Notes: a model not told the origin generated them from the letters alone. A stretch of DNA of 43,161 nt from Chloroflexota bacterium (GCA_043739665.1 JAYUDR010000022.1:1-43161); one strand, 5' to 3'; positions 23,293-31,568 are shown, counted from the stretch's first letter. Numbers and translations: made by a program.

Positions 23293-24600
23293 CTACTTCA
23301 GGGCCTCAGCGAGGATCGCCTTGAGCTGGTCCCACTCGACCAAAAAGGCGTCATGGCCCTTTGTTGAGTGGATCTCGCGGTAGGCGGCGTCCATGCCGGC
23401 CGTCGAGGCCGCTTCGACCATATCGCAAACCTGGGTCGTACCGTACAGAATGTCGCCCTCGATGCCGACTCCCGTAAGGCGCGTACCGTAGGCCGCAAGC
23501 CGCTGCAGAGCGGCCACCGCACCGCCGCGATCTCGGCCGATGTCGTGCGTGTCCATGGCCCGGACCAGAGTGCAGTACGTGTCGTCGTCGAACCGCTCCA
23601 GGAGCTTGCGGCCCTGGTGGCGCAGATAGTTGACGATGGACGGCGTGCCGTCGGACTCGGTTCGGCCGGTGAAGCGCTGTTCGAAGTCGATCTCGCTTCG
23701 ATATGTGGTGATTGCCAGCTGGCGGGCCAGGTCCAGCCCATCGAGACCGAGACGGTCGATGATTTCGAGCTGGATGTGGTTCCAGCCGACGGCGAGCTGG
23801 CCGATGCGAGCCGGCGCGGCTATCGGCACAACCCGGCTGATCTCGCCGGGCCGCTCCAGGGCCACCTCCAGGGCGACCATGCCGCCCAGTGATCCGCCCA
23901 CGGCCAGGGCAACCTTGCCGATCCCCAGCGCGTCGAGAAGACGCCACTGGGCCCGGGCTTGGTCCCGGACGGTGATGTGTGGAAATGTTCGCCCGTACGG
24001 CTTGCCCGTCACCGCGTTGCGCGAGATCGGGCCGCTGGTGCCGTAGCGGCTGCCCAGCAGGTTGATGCAGATGACGCCGAACTTCTCGGTGTCGAGGACC
24101 TGGCCCGGGCCGATGAGAGGCGCCCACCAGTCGCCCGCGGCGTCGGCCGAGCCGGTCAGTGCGTGAACCACCAGAATCTGGCGACCCTCGCCGATCGGAA
24201 CTCCGTCGTGACGGTAGGCTCCGACCAGGTCGGGCAGCACGGCGCCAGACTCGAGCATGAAGCGCCCGAGCCAGCGAGAGACGATCTTTCCGGCTTGCGG
24301 ATCCAAGGTGTTATCCACGTTGTTCAGGCTACGAAAACCTGAGTCACCGCGTGCGGTCGAAACGCCAGGGTCGGCCGGGACGAAAACGGAGCTTGCGGCC
24401 GACCGCGCCGCCGCGGAGCTTGCCGCGGAGTGCGCCGCGGCTGAAGCGCCGGCTAGGGCCGAAAATGGCTGCGCGCCGAGCCCTGTGAGGGACCCGGCGC
24501 GCGATGTTGCGGCTGGAGTGGACTCGGCGGCGCGGGCCTCGGAGAGCGCGCTACTACCGCGCCGCCCCGAAGCCTTCAGTTCCACCGATGTCCAGTGCAT
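23293..24600 (-). CDS. metX: Homoserine O-acyl(acetyl)transferase, MetX family
   Basis: HALTGS, GGSLGGM nucleophile, DILY Asp, GHDAFL His; directly after metY. N-terminal ~90 aa is Ala/Ser-rich, so the start is uncertain (GTG 24318 alternative). Confidence 0.9.
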   Translation of the reverse strand: MHWTSVELKASGRRGSSALSEARAAESTPAATSRAGSLTGLGAQPFSALAGASAAAHSAASSAAARSAASSVFVPADPGVSTARGDSGFRSLNNVDNTLDPQAGKIVSRWLGRFMLESGAVLPDLVGAYRHDGVPIGEGRQILVVHALTGSADAAGDWWAPLIGPGQVLDTEKFGVICINLLGSRYGTSGPISRNAVTGKPYGRTFPHITVRDQARAQWRLLDALGIGKVALAVGGSLGGMVALEVALERPGEISRVVPIAAPARIGQLAVGWNHIQLEIIDRLGLDGLDLARQLAITTYRSEIDFEQRFTGRTESDGTPSIVNYLRHQGRKLLERFDDDTYCTLVRAMDTHDIGRDRGGAVAALQRLAAYGTRLTGVGIEGDILYGTTQVCDMVEAASTAGMDAAYREIHSTKGHDAFLVEWDQLKAILAEALK

Positions 24601-24615
24601 GGTTGGGTCGCCGTC

Positions 24616-26177
<1,562 letters not shown>

Positions 26178-26225
26178 CCCGGGACTGATCTTTGGTCCGG
26201 CTACGCTGCTAGGTGAGCCAGAACC

Positions 26226-26336
26226 TCAGACCCCATCCTCCGCACTTCGGGGCCGCCAGGGCATACACAACATCGAACAGCGCAGGCACGAGGCCATGCG
26301 CGAGTTCTCCCGGCGGCTGAAGGCGTGGCTATTCAT
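26226..26336 (-). CDS. Met/Cys-rich leader peptide (36 aa, MNSHAFSRRENSRMASCLRCSMLCMPWRPRSAEDGV)
   Basis: Hand translation; 3 Met + 3 Cys within 12 codons; ATG 9 nt after a TAGACT -10; overlaps the antiterminator arm. Below the ORF-track cutoff. Confidence 0.75.
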   Translation of the reverse strand: MNSHAFSRRENSRMASCLRCSMLCMPWRPRSAEDGV

Positions 26337-26345
26337 TGCCCGCGC

Positions 26346-26375
26346 AGTCTAGGCGAGTAGCTGCGCATTGTGCAA
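26346..26375 (-). promoter_or_regulatory. Sigma70-type promoter for leader-metY-metX
   Basis: TTGCAC (26375-26370) - 18 nt - TAGACT (26351-26346). Confidence 0.6.
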
Positions 26376-26434
26376 GTCCAGGTGCTCGCGCCGCAACACC
26401 GCAGGTCGGGCGGGCCCGCGGCCTGGGGCAAAAC

Positions 26435-27637
26435 CTACGCATGGTCGAGGGCCTGACGGAGGTCGGCGACCAGGTCCGCGGCCGACTCAATGCCGACCGA
26501 GAGGCGCACGAACGCCTCGGGCACGGCCAGCGCCGAATCCGCGACCGAGGCGTGCGTCATCACGGCCGGCAGCTCGATCAACGACTCCACGCCGCCGAGC
26601 GATTCGGCCAGGATGAAGATGCGGGTGCCTTCGCAGACGGCTACGGCCCTCTCGCGGGCGGAGCGGCCGCCCAGCGCTGCCGGAATGAAGCCGACCATGC
26701 CACCGCCGGAGCCACTCATCTGGCGGACGGCCAGGGCTGCCTGCGGATGGGCATGTGGGCCGTCGACCAGGCCCGGATAGCGGACTTCGGCCACGTCGTC
26801 GCGGGCGGCCAGAAAGCGGGCGACGGTCTCCGCGTTCTCGCCGTGGCGCTCCATCCGAAGGACCAGCGTCCTGAGGCCGCGCAGGATCAGGAAGCAATCC
26901 TGGGGTCCCGGAATGGCACCGTTGGCGTTCTGCAGGAAGTGGAGCTGGTCGGCGACCTCGTCGTCGCTGGTGACGGCGACACCGGCGATCGTGTCGGAGT
27001 GCCCGCCGAGGTACTTGGTCGCGGAGTGGTAGACGATGTCCGCGCCCAACTCCAGCGGGCGCTGCAACGCGGGTGAGGCAAAGGTGTTGTCGACGACGAT
27101 GAGCGGTCGGCGGCCGCGGGATCCGCGATGCCCGGCCACGGCAGCCGCGACGGCACCTATGTCCACGAGTCGAAGTAGGGGATTGGTGGGCGTCTCGAAC
27201 CAGACCAGCCGGGTACGCTCCGTGAGGTTTGCGTCGAGCACCGCCGCGGGATCCGCCGCCAGGTCAACGAAGCGGGCCTGAACTCCACGCGGCCGTGCGA
27301 CCTTGTCGAACCACCGGAATGTGCCGCCATAGACGTCGTTGCCGACGATCACTTCGTCGCCCGGGAGGGCCAACTCGCCGATGGTCGACGTGACGGCGCT
27401 GCCGGAGGCAAAGGCGATGCCGTGCGCGCCGCCCTCCAGGTCCGCCACAGCGCGCTCCAGCCGTGACCGCGTGGGGTTGCCGGTTCGAGCGTATTCCCAG
27501 CCGCCGCGAGGACGGCCGACGCCGTCCTGGGCGAAGGTGCTGGTTTGGTAGATGGGCGGCGAGACGGCGCCGGTTAGCTCGTCGGGCTCGCCGCCGGCAT
27601 GGACAACACGCGTCTCGAATTCGAACTTGTCAGCCAC
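26435..27637 (-). CDS. Cystathionine gamma-lyase / gamma-synthase family PLP enzyme (likely gamma-lyase of reverse transsulfuration)
   Basis: YARTGNPTR, ETPTNP, VDNTF, HSATKYLGGHSD, AESLGGVESL; overlaps the CBS stop. Confidence 0.9.
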   Translation of the reverse strand: MADKFEFETRVVHAGGEPDELTGAVSPPIYQTSTFAQDGVGRPRGGWEYARTGNPTRSRLERAVADLEGGAHGIAFASGSAVTSTIGELALPGDEVIVGNDVYGGTFRWFDKVARPRGVQARFVDLAADPAAVLDANLTERTRLVWFETPTNPLLRLVDIGAVAAAVAGHRGSRGRRPLIVVDNTFASPALQRPLELGADIVYHSATKYLGGHSDTIAGVAVTSDDEVADQLHFLQNANGAIPGPQDCFLILRGLRTLVLRMERHGENAETVARFLAARDDVAEVRYPGLVDGPHAHPQAALAVRQMSGSGGGMVGFIPAALGGRSARERAVAVCEGTRIFILAESLGGVESLIELPAVMTHASVADSALAVPEAFVRLSVGIESAADLVADLRQALDHA

Positions 27638-29117
27638 GTCGGCCTCCGGCAGCGGTAGTGTGGTTTAGGAACTCCAGCAGATCGAGCCGGGTCGCGATGC
27701 CGGTCGGCGATCCGTCGCGGATCAAGACGACCGCCTGCGCGCCGCCGGACAGTAGCCCGTACGACTCCTCGACCGCGGCGTTCTCGTCCACGAGCGGCAG
27801 CGGCCTGTCCATAACCTCACCGACCGTCCGGCCGATGATGGCGGGGTCGCGGAAGGCACGGTCCAGCAGACCGCGGTCCGAGACGGAGCCGACGATCGAA
27901 GCCGCGTTTACGGGTGCGCCCACTGCCGCCTCCGAAACCGGCATCTGGCTGATGCCGTATTCCTGAAGCCGCGTGATTGCCGCGCCCACCGTCTCTGTCG
28001 TGTGGATGACGACGAGGGGTGGAAGCGCCGTGCCGTGGTGGTGGTCGGACAGAAGATCACCGATGCGGGCGATCGATGCCGGCCGTGTGAGGAGCCCATG
28101 CTCGCGCAGCCATTCGTCGTTGTAGAGCTTCGAGAGGTAGTTCCGGCCGGTGTCCGGCAACAGCACCACGATGACCGCGTCAGCGCCCACGCCGCGCTCG
28201 GTCAGCTCACGGGCAACGACAAGAGCCGCCACGAGCGCAGTCCCCGACGACTCGCCGGCGAGGATGCCTTCCTCCCGAGTCAGCCGTCGCGCGGCCGCGA
28301 AGGCATCGGCATCCGGCACTCGCACCCACCGATCGACGAGATTGGGGTCGAGCGTATCAGGCCAGAAGTCCTCACCCACGCCTTCGGTAAGGTACGGCCG
28401 CGGAACGTCGCCCGAGAACACGCTGCCCTCAGTGTCGCCGCCGACCACGACAACGTCCGGCCGCTGCGACCGCAGATAGCGGGCCACTCCGGTGATCGTT
28501 CCGCCCGTGCCGGCGCCGGCTACGAAGTGAGTCACCTTGCCGGCCGTCTGGCGCCAGATTTCGGGCCCGGTGGTTCGTTCGTGGGCCGCCGGGTTCTCCT
28601 CGTTCCAATATTGGCCGGGCATGAACGCGCCCGGAATGTCGCGGGCCAGTCGCGCCGCCACCGAGTAGTAGCTCTCGGGCGACTCAGGTGGCACGGCCGT
28701 GGGGCATACGACAACCTCGGCGCCATAGGCGCGGAGGAGGGCTTGCTTCTCGGACGACTGCTTGTCGGCCATAACGAAGATGCAGCGATAGCCCCTGAGC
28801 GCAGCGGCGATGGCCAGGCCGTGGCCGGTGTTGCCGCTCGTTGGCTCGATGATCGTCCCACCCGGCCTCAACAGGCCGGCACGTTCGGCCGCCTCGATCA
28901 TGGGCAGGCCGATCCGGTCCTTGACCGAGCCTCCCGGGTTGAGCATTTCGAGCTTGGCCAAGACGAGAGGTTGGCGATCGATCGGACCGAGGTCGCGGGT
29001 GGTGCGGCTGAGCCGGACGAGGGGCGTATTGCCTACGAGGTCCAGGATCGAGTCGGCGAACTCGATGGCGTTGCCAGGGGCTGCGGCGACGGAGAGGCGA
29101 GATGCCGCGAGTGTCAT
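27630..29117 (-). CDS. cbs: Cystathionine beta-synthase with C-terminal CBS-domain pair
   Basis: NPGGSVKDRI PLP lysine, EPTSGNTG, GAGTGGT, EGVGEDFWP, PDTGRNYLSKLYND, C-terminal GISQMPV CBS domains; ATG 29117 behind GGAG. Confidence 0.92.
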   Translation of the reverse strand: MTLAASRLSVAAAPGNAIEFADSILDLVGNTPLVRLSRTTRDLGPIDRQPLVLAKLEMLNPGGSVKDRIGLPMIEAAERAGLLRPGGTIIEPTSGNTGHGLAIAAALRGYRCIFVMADKQSSEKQALLRAYGAEVVVCPTAVPPESPESYYSVAARLARDIPGAFMPGQYWNEENPAAHERTTGPEIWRQTAGKVTHFVAGAGTGGTITGVARYLRSQRPDVVVVGGDTEGSVFSGDVPRPYLTEGVGEDFWPDTLDPNLVDRWVRVPDADAFAAARRLTREEGILAGESSGTALVAALVVARELTERGVGADAVIVVLLPDTGRNYLSKLYNDEWLREHGLLTRPASIARIGDLLSDHHHGTALPPLVVIHTTETVGAAITRLQEYGISQMPVSEAAVGAPVNAASIVGSVSDRGLLDRAFRDPAIIGRTVGEVMDRPLPLVDENAAVEESYGLLSGGAQAVVLIRDGSPTGIATRLDLLEFLNHTTAAGGRRG

Positions 29118-29200
29118 TAGTGACTCCGGGTGACGATGAGGTGGTGCCGAGGACATGAGCAGGGCGGAAGGGCTGCGACCCCGCCGACCGGTTCGAGCGG

Positions 29201-29235
29201 AATCAAAAGGCCGCAACTCCGATGAAGCTGCGGCC
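29201..29235 (-). terminator. Intrinsic terminator (attenuator) in the cbs leader
   Basis: Minus strand GGCCGCAGCTTC-ATC-GGAGTTGCGGCC (12 bp, 2 G-U) followed by TTTTGATT. Confidence 0.85.
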
Positions 29236-29258
29236 CCGCATGGTCTGTGCCCGGCTCG

Positions 29259-29345
29259 TCAGGTCGCGACGTGCTCGGTGCCAGACCCCATCCCTCGATG
29301 GCGGGGCCGCCTCGAACACGTACAGAGAATGCGCACTGATTTCAC
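29259..29345 (-). CDS. Leaderless Cys-containing leader peptide (28 aa, MKSVRILCTCSRRPRHRGMGSGTEHVAT)
   Basis: Hand translation from GTG 29345, 6 nt after extended -10 TG-G-TCTAAT (29360-29352); TGT-ACG-TGT Cys pair just ahead of the antiterminator arm. Confidence 0.7.
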   Translation of the reverse strand: MKSVRILCTCSRRPRHRGMGSGTEHVAT

Positions 29346-29413
29346 GAGGAAATTAGACCACAGAATGGCCACGGCGTGCGGCTGTCTCCGATGAGCGCGG
29401 GCTGAGGCCGCAC

Positions 29414-31432
29414 CTAGAACGTTGGGCGCGGGCGTTTGCCGGGTGTCATCGCGTCGAAGCGAGCCTGCGCGCGGCGCGTCAGCGGGTTCTCCTCGCCCAG
29501 GGTGCGGCGGTAGCCGTCGACAACGGTCCGAGCCTGATTGCGGGCGGCGATCTTCTTGCCGAGCATCAACAGCGCGTTGGCGTCGCGGCTGGCCATGGCG
29601 AGTGTGTCCGGATCCTCCGGACCGGGCGACTTGCGCAGGATCGCCACCGCCTCACTGTAGAGGACGTGGGCCTCCGTTGGGTTGCCGAGCTTGAGCGCAA
29701 TGTCGCCGAGATGGCCGCGCAAGTCGGCCACGGCCCGGCCGCGCCGGCCCTCGATCTGCAAGTAGCCATCGAGCGTGCGCTGATATGTGGCGCGGGCGGC
29801 TTCGCACTGGCCCAGGCGCTCCAGAGTTAGGCCCAGCCCGAGGCCCAGCTCGAGCGTCCGCGGGTCGTCGGCGCCGACGGCCCCGGCACTGCCCGCATAG
29901 ATCCGGCCCAGAGGGCCGGCCACTCGTTCGGAGATCGTGCGGGCCTGCTCGCTTTCGTCAATGTCGTCGAGGGCCTCCGCCAGCCAGACCAGACTGTCGA
30001 GGGTGCGTTCGCCTTTGGGCCCGTAGAGCTGCTCGTGCGTCTCCACCAGCTGGGCCCAATAGCGGCGGGCAGACTCCAGCTCACCGACCTTGCGTAGTTC
30101 CCACGCCAGCCCCCGGAGAGCGTTGAGCGTTTCGTCCGCCTCGGCACCCAGGCGCCGGTCCTGCGTTTCGTATAACCGTGCGTAGGCTCGTCGGGCGTCG
30201 GCGTGAGCGCCCAGCTTGCCCAGGACCCGGGTCAAGCCCTGGAGCGTCCAGACCGTGTCAGGTTCGTCGGGGCCGATGGTTCGAGTGCGAGCCTCCGCCA
30301 GTTCACTCAGGCGCGCCGCGGCCCCACTCAAGTCGCCCAGTTGCTCCATGTTCCAGGCCAGGTCACCAATTGCCCATTGTGTGGCCGCGTGGTCCGGCCC
30401 GAGGATCTTCTGGCGCCTGTCGAGCAACTGCAGGTCCAGGTCGTGGGCGCGCTTGTGATCGCCGGTCCGGCCCACCGAATCGGCCAAGCCGGCGAGCGCG
30501 TCGAGTGTGGCGATGTCCTCGGGGCCGTTGAGACGCGTCCGCTTGTCGAATAGATTTCGGTAGGCTGTGACTGCGGCTTTGGCCTCGCCGAGTCCCAGGA
30601 TCAGGCGGCTGTGTTGGGTCATGGCCGAGATCGTTTCTGGCGCATCGGGCCCGAATGTCGTGATCGTTGAGGACAGGGCCTGCTCCGAAAGGGCGCGCCC
30701 GGAGGCCTTGTCGCCGGCGCCGACCAGTGCCCGAGCCAGGCTGAGCATTGCGTCGATGGTATCGGCGTGGGTAGCACCGAGGACGCGACGGCTGCGATCG
30801 ACCCGCTCGGCCAGAACCTCGCACGCACGCGGGTATTCCTCCATGGCGATCAGCACGCTGCCGAGGTTCGTCATGGTCCGAAGCGTGAGGGCGTTCTCCG
30901 GCCCGAAAACGCGCCGCTGTGCCTCCAGTAGCTGCTCGAACGTGGCCCGGGCTGCGGCATTGTCACCGAGGGCTCGATGGGTCAGGCCGAGGTTGTGCAG
31001 GGCGCTCAGGGTCGCGGGATCGTCCGCTCCGAGGGAGTTGCGGCGGCCGGCGTAGACACGTTCGTACATGGCTCGGGCGATCGCGGGCTCGTCCATGAAG
31101 GAGAGGGCAACTGCCAGGCCATGCACCGCGGACAGAGTGTCGAGGTTGCGCGGCCCAAAGACGCGCTCCGAACGTTCCATGAGGACGGTATAGGCGTCGC
31201 GTGCGGACTGGTATTCCTCAAGCTCGATGGTGATGGCGGCCAGACGGGCCTCCACCTCGATCGTGGTCGGATGATCCGGCCCGAGGAGCTTCCGGCGAGC
31301 CTCCAACACCTGCCGGAGGACCGGCCGCTGGGACCTGGGATCTTCGATTCCTTCGAGGAGGACGCTGAGGTCCTGGAGTGCGGCGAGGCCGGCAATTACT
31401 CGAGCCGGGCCGCCGGCTGACACGCGATCCAT
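29414..31432 (-). CDS. Tetratricopeptide repeat protein (42-aa kinesin-light-chain / TPR_12-type repeats)
   Basis: Recurrent (L/F)GPDHPxT(L/I) units about every 42 aa along the whole protein; start uncertain (ATG 31432). Confidence 0.85.
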   Translation of the reverse strand: MDRVSAGGPARVIAGLAALQDLSVLLEGIEDPRSQRPVLRQVLEARRKLLGPDHPTTIEVEARLAAITIELEEYQSARDAYTVLMERSERVFGPRNLDTLSAVHGLAVALSFMDEPAIARAMYERVYAGRRNSLGADDPATLSALHNLGLTHRALGDNAAARATFEQLLEAQRRVFGPENALTLRTMTNLGSVLIAMEEYPRACEVLAERVDRSRRVLGATHADTIDAMLSLARALVGAGDKASGRALSEQALSSTITTFGPDAPETISAMTQHSRLILGLGEAKAAVTAYRNLFDKRTRLNGPEDIATLDALAGLADSVGRTGDHKRAHDLDLQLLDRRQKILGPDHAATQWAIGDLAWNMEQLGDLSGAAARLSELAEARTRTIGPDEPDTVWTLQGLTRVLGKLGAHADARRAYARLYETQDRRLGAEADETLNALRGLAWELRKVGELESARRYWAQLVETHEQLYGPKGERTLDSLVWLAEALDDIDESEQARTISERVAGPLGRIYAGSAGAVGADDPRTLELGLGLGLTLERLGQCEAARATYQRTLDGYLQIEGRRGRAVADLRGHLGDIALKLGNPTEAHVLYSEAVAILRKSPGPEDPDTLAMASRDANALLMLGKKIAARNQARTVVDGYRRTLGEENPLTRRAQARFDAMTPGKRPRPTF

Positions 31433-31568
31433 CGACAGAACGAGACTCCTACTAGGCCCCTGAGACACAATGATGCCAGAGTCGACACGGGACGGTCCGA
31501 TCGGGTGGGCGCGGGTACGATTAACTGCGATGTCCGCCCGGAGCGGAGAGGCCAACCGGAGGAATGCG

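Follow-up and report, generated by a model that had tools for sequence, protein, structure and literature searches.

Two leaders on the minus strand of a 43,161-nucleotide (nt) stretch of DNA from a Chloroflexota bacterium (GCA_043739665.1 JAYUDR010000022.1:1-43161; the whole stretch is called the window below and is numbered from its first letter) are probably ribosome-mediated (leader-peptide) transcription attenuators of one related family. One precedes metY-metX, the other the genes for cystathionine beta-synthase (CBS) and a cystathionine gamma-lyase/synthase-family protein (CGL). Two features typical of such attenuators are present: a short open reading frame (ORF) with codons for the end product, and an intrinsic terminator before the first gene. 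Judged from sequence comparison, a single RNA design appears to be equipped with Met, Cys or Lys codons, depending on the operon that follows, across a class of uncultured Chloroflexota.

The pair was singled out by a first-pass annotation of the window, made from the sequence alone, and its reading of the shared motif and of the genes downstream stands. The conserved blocks GGCGGCCCCG-N8/9-GGATGGGGTCTG lie at 26227-26257 (metY leader) and 29282-29311 (CBS leader), and the pattern GGCGGCCCCG-N(6-12)-GGATGGGGTCTG has exactly two matches in the source assembly, with none for the reversed control pattern. The assembly comprises 2.27 Mb and is 82.5% complete; like all the genomes compared, it is a metagenome-assembled genome (MAG) of an uncultured organism. 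Copies of CGGGGCCGC follow at 26181-26173 and 29238-29230, each leading, in the folds, into a GC-rich hairpin and then a T-tract. The two terminators are unrelated except for their GGGGCCGC arm. The genes concerned, identified with NCBIfam, are:

23293-24600, minus strand: metX, putatively regulated; forms the metY-metX unit (23293..26010)
24616-26010, minus strand: metY, putatively regulated
26435-27637, minus strand: cystathionine gamma-lyase/synthase-family gene, in one unit with CBS (26435..29117)
27630-29117, minus strand: CBS

Codons are numbered here from the CGG of an in-frame CGG-CCC, taken as codon 0, and control codons are counted back from it. The core common to the leaders is a short ORF that begins about 6-10 nt past a -10-like box and has control codons at -5 and -3 ahead of the CGG-CCC. 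In both leaders of the window the final control codon (ATG or TGT) lies two codons upstream of an in-frame CGG-CCC-CG, as had been annotated and as a reading of the sequence confirms. Do the control codons agree with the genes downstream? An automated pass over the stored loci yielded 151 unique leaders. Where metY follows (90 leaders), Met stands at -3 in all 90 and at -5 in 86; where dapB or dapA follows (27 leaders), Lys stands at -3 in all 27 and at -5 in 26. No metY leader has Lys at either position, and a single dap leader has Met there (at -5). Leaders of CBS have the form C-x-C in the three unique ones counted and in five of the six CBS-like loci viewed, although the CBS gene of genome G001 has no such leader in the 400 nt upstream. 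Two Cys codons precede cysE in 8/8 leaders (three at -5/-3, five shifted by one codon). One of the Cys leaders, before cysE-cysK, is a third copy in the source genome (contig C5:268-388, MNSHRFACFCPRRPRRRR and stop), and the leaders of dapB-dapA-dapD are exemplified by peptides ending in AKKKLWRPFREERALGL and in LKSKLWRPCREARA, each before the stop. Loci of CBS were also sought by protein search, as were those of DapB, for which 30 loci were returned; once one from the unpublished genome G476 and one with 48 nt of upstream sequence are set aside, 28 of the remaining 28 show Lys leaders. The proposal of one scaffold with exchanged control codons thus extends to cysE-cysK (Cys) and to dapB-dapA-dapD (Lys), and the codon-operon match runs through the 151 leaders.

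The metY leader had also been described as reading Met together with Cys. This is true of much of the class, with M-C-M in 69 of 106 unique Met-type leaders and a Cys codon within -6 to -3 in 73, but not of the window's own genus, where most metY leaders read M-M-S-M and lack Cys. The source genome's own metY leader is M-L-C-M, with Leu at -5 and more Cys codons at 26288-26286 and 26279-26277.

Several other genes are preceded by leaders of these types. The codons are M-A-M before a gene for a pyridoxal-phosphate (PLP) enzyme followed by a ThiS-family gene, M-C-M before beta-carbonic-anhydrase-like and OsmC-like genes, and M-C-M in all five leaders with an OsmC-like gene downstream. The loci with Met/Cys-type leaders include L050, L058, L120 and L101 for the beta-carbonic-anhydrase-like (Pro_CA-family) genes, and L241, L119, L122, L127 and L138 for the OsmC-like ones; a 420-amino-acid protein of unknown kind is encoded behind another. 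None of these three proteins has an obvious role in Met or Cys synthesis. It is a speculation that the Pro_CA-family and OsmC-like proteins serve in sulfur acquisition, for example as hydrolases of carbonyl sulfide or carbon disulfide. The source genome (G000) also has two divergent relatives of the leaders that are almost identical to each other, on contigs C289 (4884-5018, minus strand) and C199 (513-647, plus strand), with model E values of 1.4e-7 and 2.7e-7. They have Cys-Cys codons (within RPCCVSRRPCRPEEGV) and no clear segment 4 (the block CGGGGCCGC) or T-tract, and the C199 copy lies upstream of a 197-amino-acid ORF and a 423-amino-acid ORF resembling a membrane protein. These copies may be decayed, or may act on translation.

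The anatomy of the metY leader is as follows:

26346..26351, minus strand: -10-like box TAGACT, read from the sequence
26226..26336, minus strand: leader ORF of 36 codons and TGA, MNSHAFSRRENSRMASCLRCSMLCMPWRPRSAEDGV and stop; ATG at 26336, alternative start ATG at 26296
26262..26273, minus strand: control codons ATG (-6), TTG, TGT (-4), ATG (-3), the last ATG at 26264-26262
26248..26256, minus strand: segment 1, GCGGCCCCG, candidate 5' arm of the antiterminator stem P1, inside the ORF (CGG-CCC-CG), from the alignment
26227..26238, minus strand: segment 2, GGATGGGGTCTG, with the 5' strands of P2a (GGAT, 26238-26235) and P2b (GTCT, 26231-26228), from RNAalifold
26194..26225, minus strand: variable inner hairpin P3, whose 3' arm holds CGGACC, from RNAalifold
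26182..26191, minus strand: 3' strands of P2b (AGAT, 26191-26188) and P2a (GTCC, 26185-26182), from RNAalifold
26173..26181, minus strand: segment 4, CGGGGCCGC, candidate P1 3' arm and terminator 5' arm, from the alignment
26121..26180, minus strand: terminator hairpin with loop insert GAGCGAAAGTAAGCTTTCGC and T-tract TTCTTTATTTCT (26132-26121), from the minimum free energy (MFE) fold

That of the CBS leader is:

29352..29357, minus strand: -10-like box TCTAAT, ending 6 nt ahead of the GTG start
29259..29345, minus strand: leader ORF of 28 codons and TGA, MKSVRILCTCSRRPRHRGMGSGTEHVAT and stop, from GTG at 29345 to TGA at 29259
29316..29324, minus strand: control codons TGT (-5), ACG, TGT (-3), the last TGT at 29318-29316
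29302..29310, minus strand: segment 1, GCGGCCCCG, candidate P1 5' arm, from pattern match and alignment
29282..29293, minus strand: segment 2, GGATGGGGTCTG; GGTCTG (29287-29282) pairs with CAGACC (29247-29242), from sequence and fold
29230..29238, minus strand: segment 4, CGGGGCCGC, from sequence and alignment
29201..29235, minus strand: terminator GGCCGCAGCTTC-ATC-GGAGTTGCGGCC, then TTTTGATT, T-tract near 29201-29208, from the MFE fold (z = -2.7) and covariation

The short ORFs have the marks of translated sequences. The metY leader ORF is kept in relatives within the genus, where indels are multiples of three (L022, L028 and L029), and Cys leaders orthologous to that of CBS are found at L033, L035, L036 and L042. 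Of 145 unique leaders, 113 have, in frame, a box TTGNNN-N16-19-NANNNT with a start codon 4-10 nt further on (ATG or GTG, with the frame open through to codon 0); the other two frames yield 0 and 1. In the leaders counted, 6-10 nt and most commonly 9 separate the -10 box from the start codon. The arrangement of the TCTAAT type, a box with a start close behind, recurs at L033, L035, L036 and L184. Because the box is in frame and the gap so short, the sequences suggest that the leader mRNAs are leaderless or almost so.

Could the nascent peptide (W-R-P-R-R/S-x-E-D-G-V) be the active part, as an arrest peptide or small protein, with the RNA complementarity secondary? Nearly every type keeps Arg-Pro, the ORF ends at +9 in 106 of the 151 leaders, changes in the conserved block fall on third codon positions, and drug-dependent arrest peptides have Arg-x-Arg motifs according to the available text of PMC8632094. 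Yet those third-position changes fall at a wobble pair and a bulge, L050 has this RNA segment in a different reading frame (A-A-P), and the C-terminal tails vary by type (RRRR-stop, CREARA-stop, HRGMGSG...). The spacers between the conserved blocks of the window's two leaders are 8 and 9 nt long, which puts GGATGGGGTCTG in different reading frames and argues that it is kept as RNA and not as peptide. An active peptide is thus highly improbable, and ribosome-mediated attenuation is the preferred reading.

At the RNA level, GCGGCCCCG has its complement, CGGGGCCGC, some 70 nt further on, and CGGGGCCGC is also the 5' arm of the hairpin before the T-tract. The terminator stem, which shares GGGCCGC with P1, has 96.9% of cells paired in an alignment of 40 leaders; both partners have changed in 16 cells (G-C in 28 leaders and A-U in 11, for instance), and none of 500 shuffles reaches the observed covariation. 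The core of P1 is a 7 bp pairing of GCGGCCC with GGGCCGC, formed in 40 of the 40 aligned leaders, of all types, with G-U as the only variation. Its 5' arm is in the ORF, both arms are invariant, and covariation is weak and confined to one end: a segment 1 with CCCUG, the form of the Lys type, is often matched by CAGGG or GAGGG in segment 4, which puts U-A in place of C-G. As P1 is invariant, covariation is silent on it, and the antiterminator stem must be called complementary but unproven.

Might the leaders work chiefly at the level of translation or mRNA stability, by sequestering a ribosome-binding site, rather than by intrinsic termination? The mycobacterial Cys short ORFs work in this way, as reported in the available text of 10.1101/834739, no clear T-tract follows the divergent Cys-Cys leaders at C289:4884-5018 and C199:513-647, CCUCC-N4-GGAGG surrounds the ribosome-binding site of many dapB genes, and the terminators were missed by a simple scan. 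Against this, a GC-rich hairpin followed by a T-rich tract is found in the 40 aligned leaders of all types, its stem covaries, and the 5' arm of the terminator is the exact partner of P1, which fits an antiterminator/terminator switch. Control at translation or stability as the main mode is therefore highly improbable, and transcription attenuation is preferred. The dapB start regions themselves (L203, L208, L210, L212, L215 and others) have CCUCC-N4 ahead of the ribosome-binding site GGAGG; a hairpin of the two could sequester that site and provide a possible translational layer. In the window's genus (L047, L048, L049 and L198-L200) three to four repeated TGCATAAT, TGCATAG or TGCGCATA boxes lie just ahead of and over the promoter of the Lys leader, and may be a transcription-factor site additional to attenuation.

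Inside P1 the leaders differ. The metY-type consensus (RNAalifold, 55 cores) consists of P1, P2a (GGAU:GUCC), P2b (GUCU:AGAY) and the variable hairpin P3, and GGATGGGGTCTG is accordingly the 5' strand of P2a and P2b. The second pair of P2b is U-A in 48 sequences and C-G in five, and pairs at the base of P3 covary as well (UA 39, CG 12 at one; CG 34, UG 11, UA 7 at another). The stop codon of the metY leader (TGA, 26228-26226) overlaps the 5' strand of P2b. For GGTCTG the first-pass annotation had proposed an inner stem in both leaders, with CAGACC at 29247-29242 and CGGACC at 26199-26194. The sequence has both, and the CBS pairing holds; in the metY leader CGGACC belongs to the 3' arm of P3, and its pairing with GGTCTG is physically possible but not the one relatives keep, the conserved partner of GGGGTCT being AGAT at 26191-26188 in 55 relatives. 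A crude search of 100 cores for a partner of GGTCTG was uninformative, with at least five of six pairs in 83 against 72 in the reversed control. The annotation's further suggestion, an alternative pairing of GGCCCC with GGGGUC, is possible. The scaffold is also narrower than first drawn, as GGATGGGGTCTG is present in the metY type and in two of six CBS-type leaders and absent from the other four, which have GAAGC..GCTTC in place of its pairing, with four of six pairs kept and three changed on both sides. What all types share is the pair of P1 arms, the codon register and the terminator.

A rival explanation centres on this inner structure. The P1-P2a-P2b-P3 domain could be a riboswitch-like switch that binds a ligand or protein (e.g. 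S-adenosylmethionine [SAM], homocysteine or lysine), with the ORF incidental or secondary. P1 closing a multi-helix domain beside a terminator is the usual riboswitch layout, and the metY-type domain has a highly conserved unpaired (A/C)(A/C)GUGCGGA, a GG bulge and a GA loop. These unpaired nucleotides are, however, inside the ORF, where the varying sites are a wobble pair and a bulge. Between the Met, Cys and Lys types the inner domain changes but the codon register does not, and promoter plus start codon share the frame of the ORF in 113 of 145 leaders (0 and 1 for the other two frames). No Rfam family is at or near threshold: a covariance-model scan of the whole window gave no match at the gathering threshold, which was not reached by the Trp, His, Leu, Thr and Phe leader, SAM, Lysine and T-box families among others, and with E up to 10 only three chance-level matches (E >= 3.2) appeared within 25900-29500. 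A ligand-binding switch is thus highly improbable, and the leader-peptide attenuator is retained.

Two small elements accompany the metY type. GAGCGAAAGTAAGCTTTCGC is a small palindromic insert (26151-26170, minus strand) in the loop of the metY terminator and occurs once in the source genome; similar inserts are found in the terminator loops of L004, L007, L017 and L022 and, in frame, within the leader ORFs of L022, L028 and L029. It looks like a tiny mobile hairpin. About 24 nt past the terminator T-tract, at 26075-26088 (minus strand) and at the same site in relatives, is a conserved GGGCAGCCGCC-like element. Its RCCGCC, complementary to GGCGGC of segment 1, occurs in 83 of 105 leaders of the Met type and in none of the 28 of the Lys type.

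How would such a leader operate? The response to starvation and its timing we infer as follows. The promoter would set the transcript start at, or a few nucleotides ahead of, the start codon of the 28-36-codon ORF, which would present end-product codons at -6 to -3 of the in-frame CGG-CCC, Met with Cys for metY-metX and Cys for CBS-CGL. Segment 1 (GCGGCCCCG) would pair with segment 4 (CGGGGCCGC) about 70 nt on and close the stacked domain P1-P2a-P2b-P3, segment 4 doubling as the 5' arm of the intrinsic terminator. When the cognate aminoacyl-tRNA is scarce, the ribosome would pause on the control codons, which lie just outside the domain; P1 could then form once segment 4 is transcribed, the terminator would be blocked and the operon transcribed. 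With charged tRNA the ribosome would enter segment 1 and then P2/P3, on its way to the stop 6-16 codons later. Long-range closure of P1 would then fail, and segment 4 would pair with the 3' arm of the terminator.

Folding agrees with part of this scheme. With P1 enforced or with segment 1 unpaired (the terminator fold), the three leaders of the source genome have energies of -61.4/-61.4, -61.7/-59.7 and -46.5/-47.0 kcal/mol, so that the two folds are predicted to be nearly isoenergetic and the switch bistable. With a ribosome mask at -5 and the transcript ending just past segment 4, the full P1 domain folds. The first-pass annotation had cautioned that a ribosome at the last control codon would partly cover the arm, and the masks bear this out, in that full P1 is left at -5 and a fraction of it at -3. 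The effective control codon is probably that at -5/-6.

A number of points weigh against attenuation as set out here. With a mask at -3, roughly half of segment 1 would be covered and only 3-4 bp of P1 are left; a mask at the stop codon fails to abolish P1 in the CBS leader; and the full-length transcript has the terminator as its MFE fold even with a stall at -5. Given the bistable folds and this last result, the decision must be kinetic, and the replete state, for which the modelling gives no clean account, is what the model explains least well. The invariance of P1 could equally reflect the role of its arm in the terminator together with coding constraint. The stricter sigma-70 promoter scan flagged neither leader's -10-like box, and the simple terminator scan flagged neither the metY nor the CBS terminator. 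Control codons number only two or three, few beside his or leu leaders. The loci behind the codon counts were gathered by RNA motif or gene, never by control codons, and are not a random or unbiased sample. In metatranscriptomes, 24 runs contain small portions of a 401-nt query, and contigs at least 85% alike (four runs, four studies) span 26159-26347 and the metY body but not the poorly conserved 26051-26104; contigs cannot show transcript ends and so permit no inference on termination or expression.

The family seems largely confined to one class, Candidatus Limnocylindria. Among the motif matches listed (at least 120 stretches), almost all come from MAGs whose label is Candidatus Limnocylindria, Limnocylindrales, Chloroflexi or Chloroflexota. 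Exact GCGGCCCCG-N50-80-CGGGGCCGC is present in 46 of 51 genomes of the window's genus, with the reversed control in four genomes. Across the class, GGCGGCCCCG-N50-80-CGGGGCCGC is found in 102 of 401 genomes, or by family in 58/137, 40/153, 2/92, 1/16 (a match that resembles a tRNA gene) and 0/2; these tallies include four unpublished genomes (G347, G184, G362 and G217), all matching, without which they are 98/397 for the class and 36/149 for the second family. Five second-family genomes that lack the motif have no MetY match at E <= 1e-80 either, so its absence there is uninformative about loss of the leader. A covariance model built from the 40 leaders matched 6 of 151 genomes in a sample of the phylum, all from the window's class, and 0 of 136 from families outside it, where 22 candidates were scored per genome, so that weak matches can escape. 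The source genome has five model matches (E <= 2.7e-7) and five near-complete relatives have one to four each; such searches score 22-150 first-look candidates per genome, and the copy numbers are lower bounds. Between them, the searches by motif, gene and model yielded further members before other amino-acid operons, with cognate codons in the same register (one codon off in five cysE leaders). As to covariation, the terminator, P2b and P3 provide it, and P1 does not. The low copy number (one to five per genome) and the position of all inspected copies before amino-acid or sulfur genes rule out a dispersed repeat, whether like a repetitive extragenic palindrome or like a miniature inverted-repeat transposable element, which the first-pass annotation had named as an outcome that would count against it.

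Some candidates fell away. L053 and L197, which have the exact P1-pair pattern, lack a short ORF or terminator and are chance matches, and a possible third leader type, with motif AGCGGCCCCGCATCGGCGCGGATGCGGTCTG in four genomes, failed the segment-4 filter and is not counted. L102, an 8 kb stretch labelled Candidatus Binatia bacterium, has two leaders of the kind typical of Limnocylindria, one Lys-type and one Met-type, and its label may be a binning or labelling error. In a third family of the class, L251 (G081:C80) has a metY homologue (63% identity) behind a leaderless-looking short ORF (MTHRRCACRMAMPQRGRSVSPP and stop), a hairpin and a T-tract. This leader has Cys/Met codons and stems without GCGGCCCCG; the other three metY loci viewed in the family directly follow metX. 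As the stem sequence of this Cys/Met leader is different, leader-peptide control may be older than the GCGGCCCCG/CGGGGCCGC design. Within the window, the gene upstream of the CBS leader (29414-31555, minus strand) matches a model for a tetratricopeptide-repeat protein of the FxSxx-COOH system (E 8.8e-86, under the curated cut-off).

It is fairly probable that the leaders descend from a single leaderless attenuator through duplication and re-targeting, with two or three codons exchanged, that the class controls synthesis of Met, Cys and Lys and scavenging of sulfur in this way, and that these are the first Met and Lys leader-peptide attenuators described. A single sequence-recognisable design for at least three amino acids, in many genera, would constitute a natural codon-swap experiment on how specificity is gained, and the fixed register of the control codons offers a handle on how far a stalled ribosome shields the RNA downstream. 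The family also helps to annotate regulation in a class that is abundant in soil and freshwater and uncultured, and flags genes likely to be tied to sulfur supply: the beta-carbonic-anhydrase-like and OsmC-like genes, and the PLP enzyme beside the ThiS-family gene.

Leader-peptide attenuation is textbook knowledge, with scattered examples, mostly for Trp, His, Leu, Thr, Phe and Ile/Val, that are not visibly interrelated. Met and Lys pathways elsewhere are under SAM and lysine riboswitches, T-boxes or repressors. Classical leader-peptide attenuators have an upstream ORF with end-product codons and mutually exclusive antiterminator and terminator, and sense by ribosome position (10.1101/834739, available text). 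The leaders described here share the first of these traits with the trp, his, leu, thr and pheA attenuators of Proteobacteria and, on the proposed mechanism, would share the other two. They differ in reading Met, Cys or Lys, with two or three control codons in a fixed register directly before the candidate antiterminator arm, and in their apparently leaderless or nearly leaderless transcript, a design common to operons for different amino acids, their occurrence in Chloroflexota and the lack of an Rfam leader match. A 2010 survey, in its available part, lists leader peptides from Proteobacteria, Actinobacteria and, newly, Firmicutes only (PMC2965389).

For Cys there are closer parallels. Mycobacterial polycysteine short ORFs are leaderless, sense charged tRNA-Cys and lie upstream of cysteine-related operons (Canestrari et al., 10.1101/834739); as described in the available text, their Cys codons are consecutive and they control translation, through Shine-Dalgarno sequestration and with no terminator, whereas here the codons are C-x-C, with a covarying hairpin and T-tract and a separate candidate antiterminator stem. 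Actinobacterial Cys leader peptides, without terminators, were predicted upstream of cys/cbs genes by Seliverstov et al. (2005, PMC1262725), who found no RNA elements for Met or Lys operons. In Rhodobacterales, uORFC-8-2 before cysS is an upstream ORF with Cys codons, a terminator-like stem and a U run (PMC8632094, available text). Both share with the present leaders Cys-codon short ORFs upstream of cys/cbs or cysS; they are from other taxa and have other sequences, and the available text of the two papers describes no Met or Lys versions and no cross-operon design. In the open-access literature, supplements excluded, no Met- or Lys-codon leader peptide, nor any such element in Limnocylindria, was found. 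The kind of regulator is thus already known, and what was not met with in open-access print is the Met/Lys specificity, the phylum and the design shared across operons.

In breadth of use the leaders resemble T-boxes, where one RNA design precedes many amino-acid genes, a few exchangeable nucleotides set the specificity, and antiterminator and terminator compete. T-box leaders bind uncharged tRNA directly and need no translation. The window has no T-box match, and the specificity of its leaders would lie instead in translated codons.

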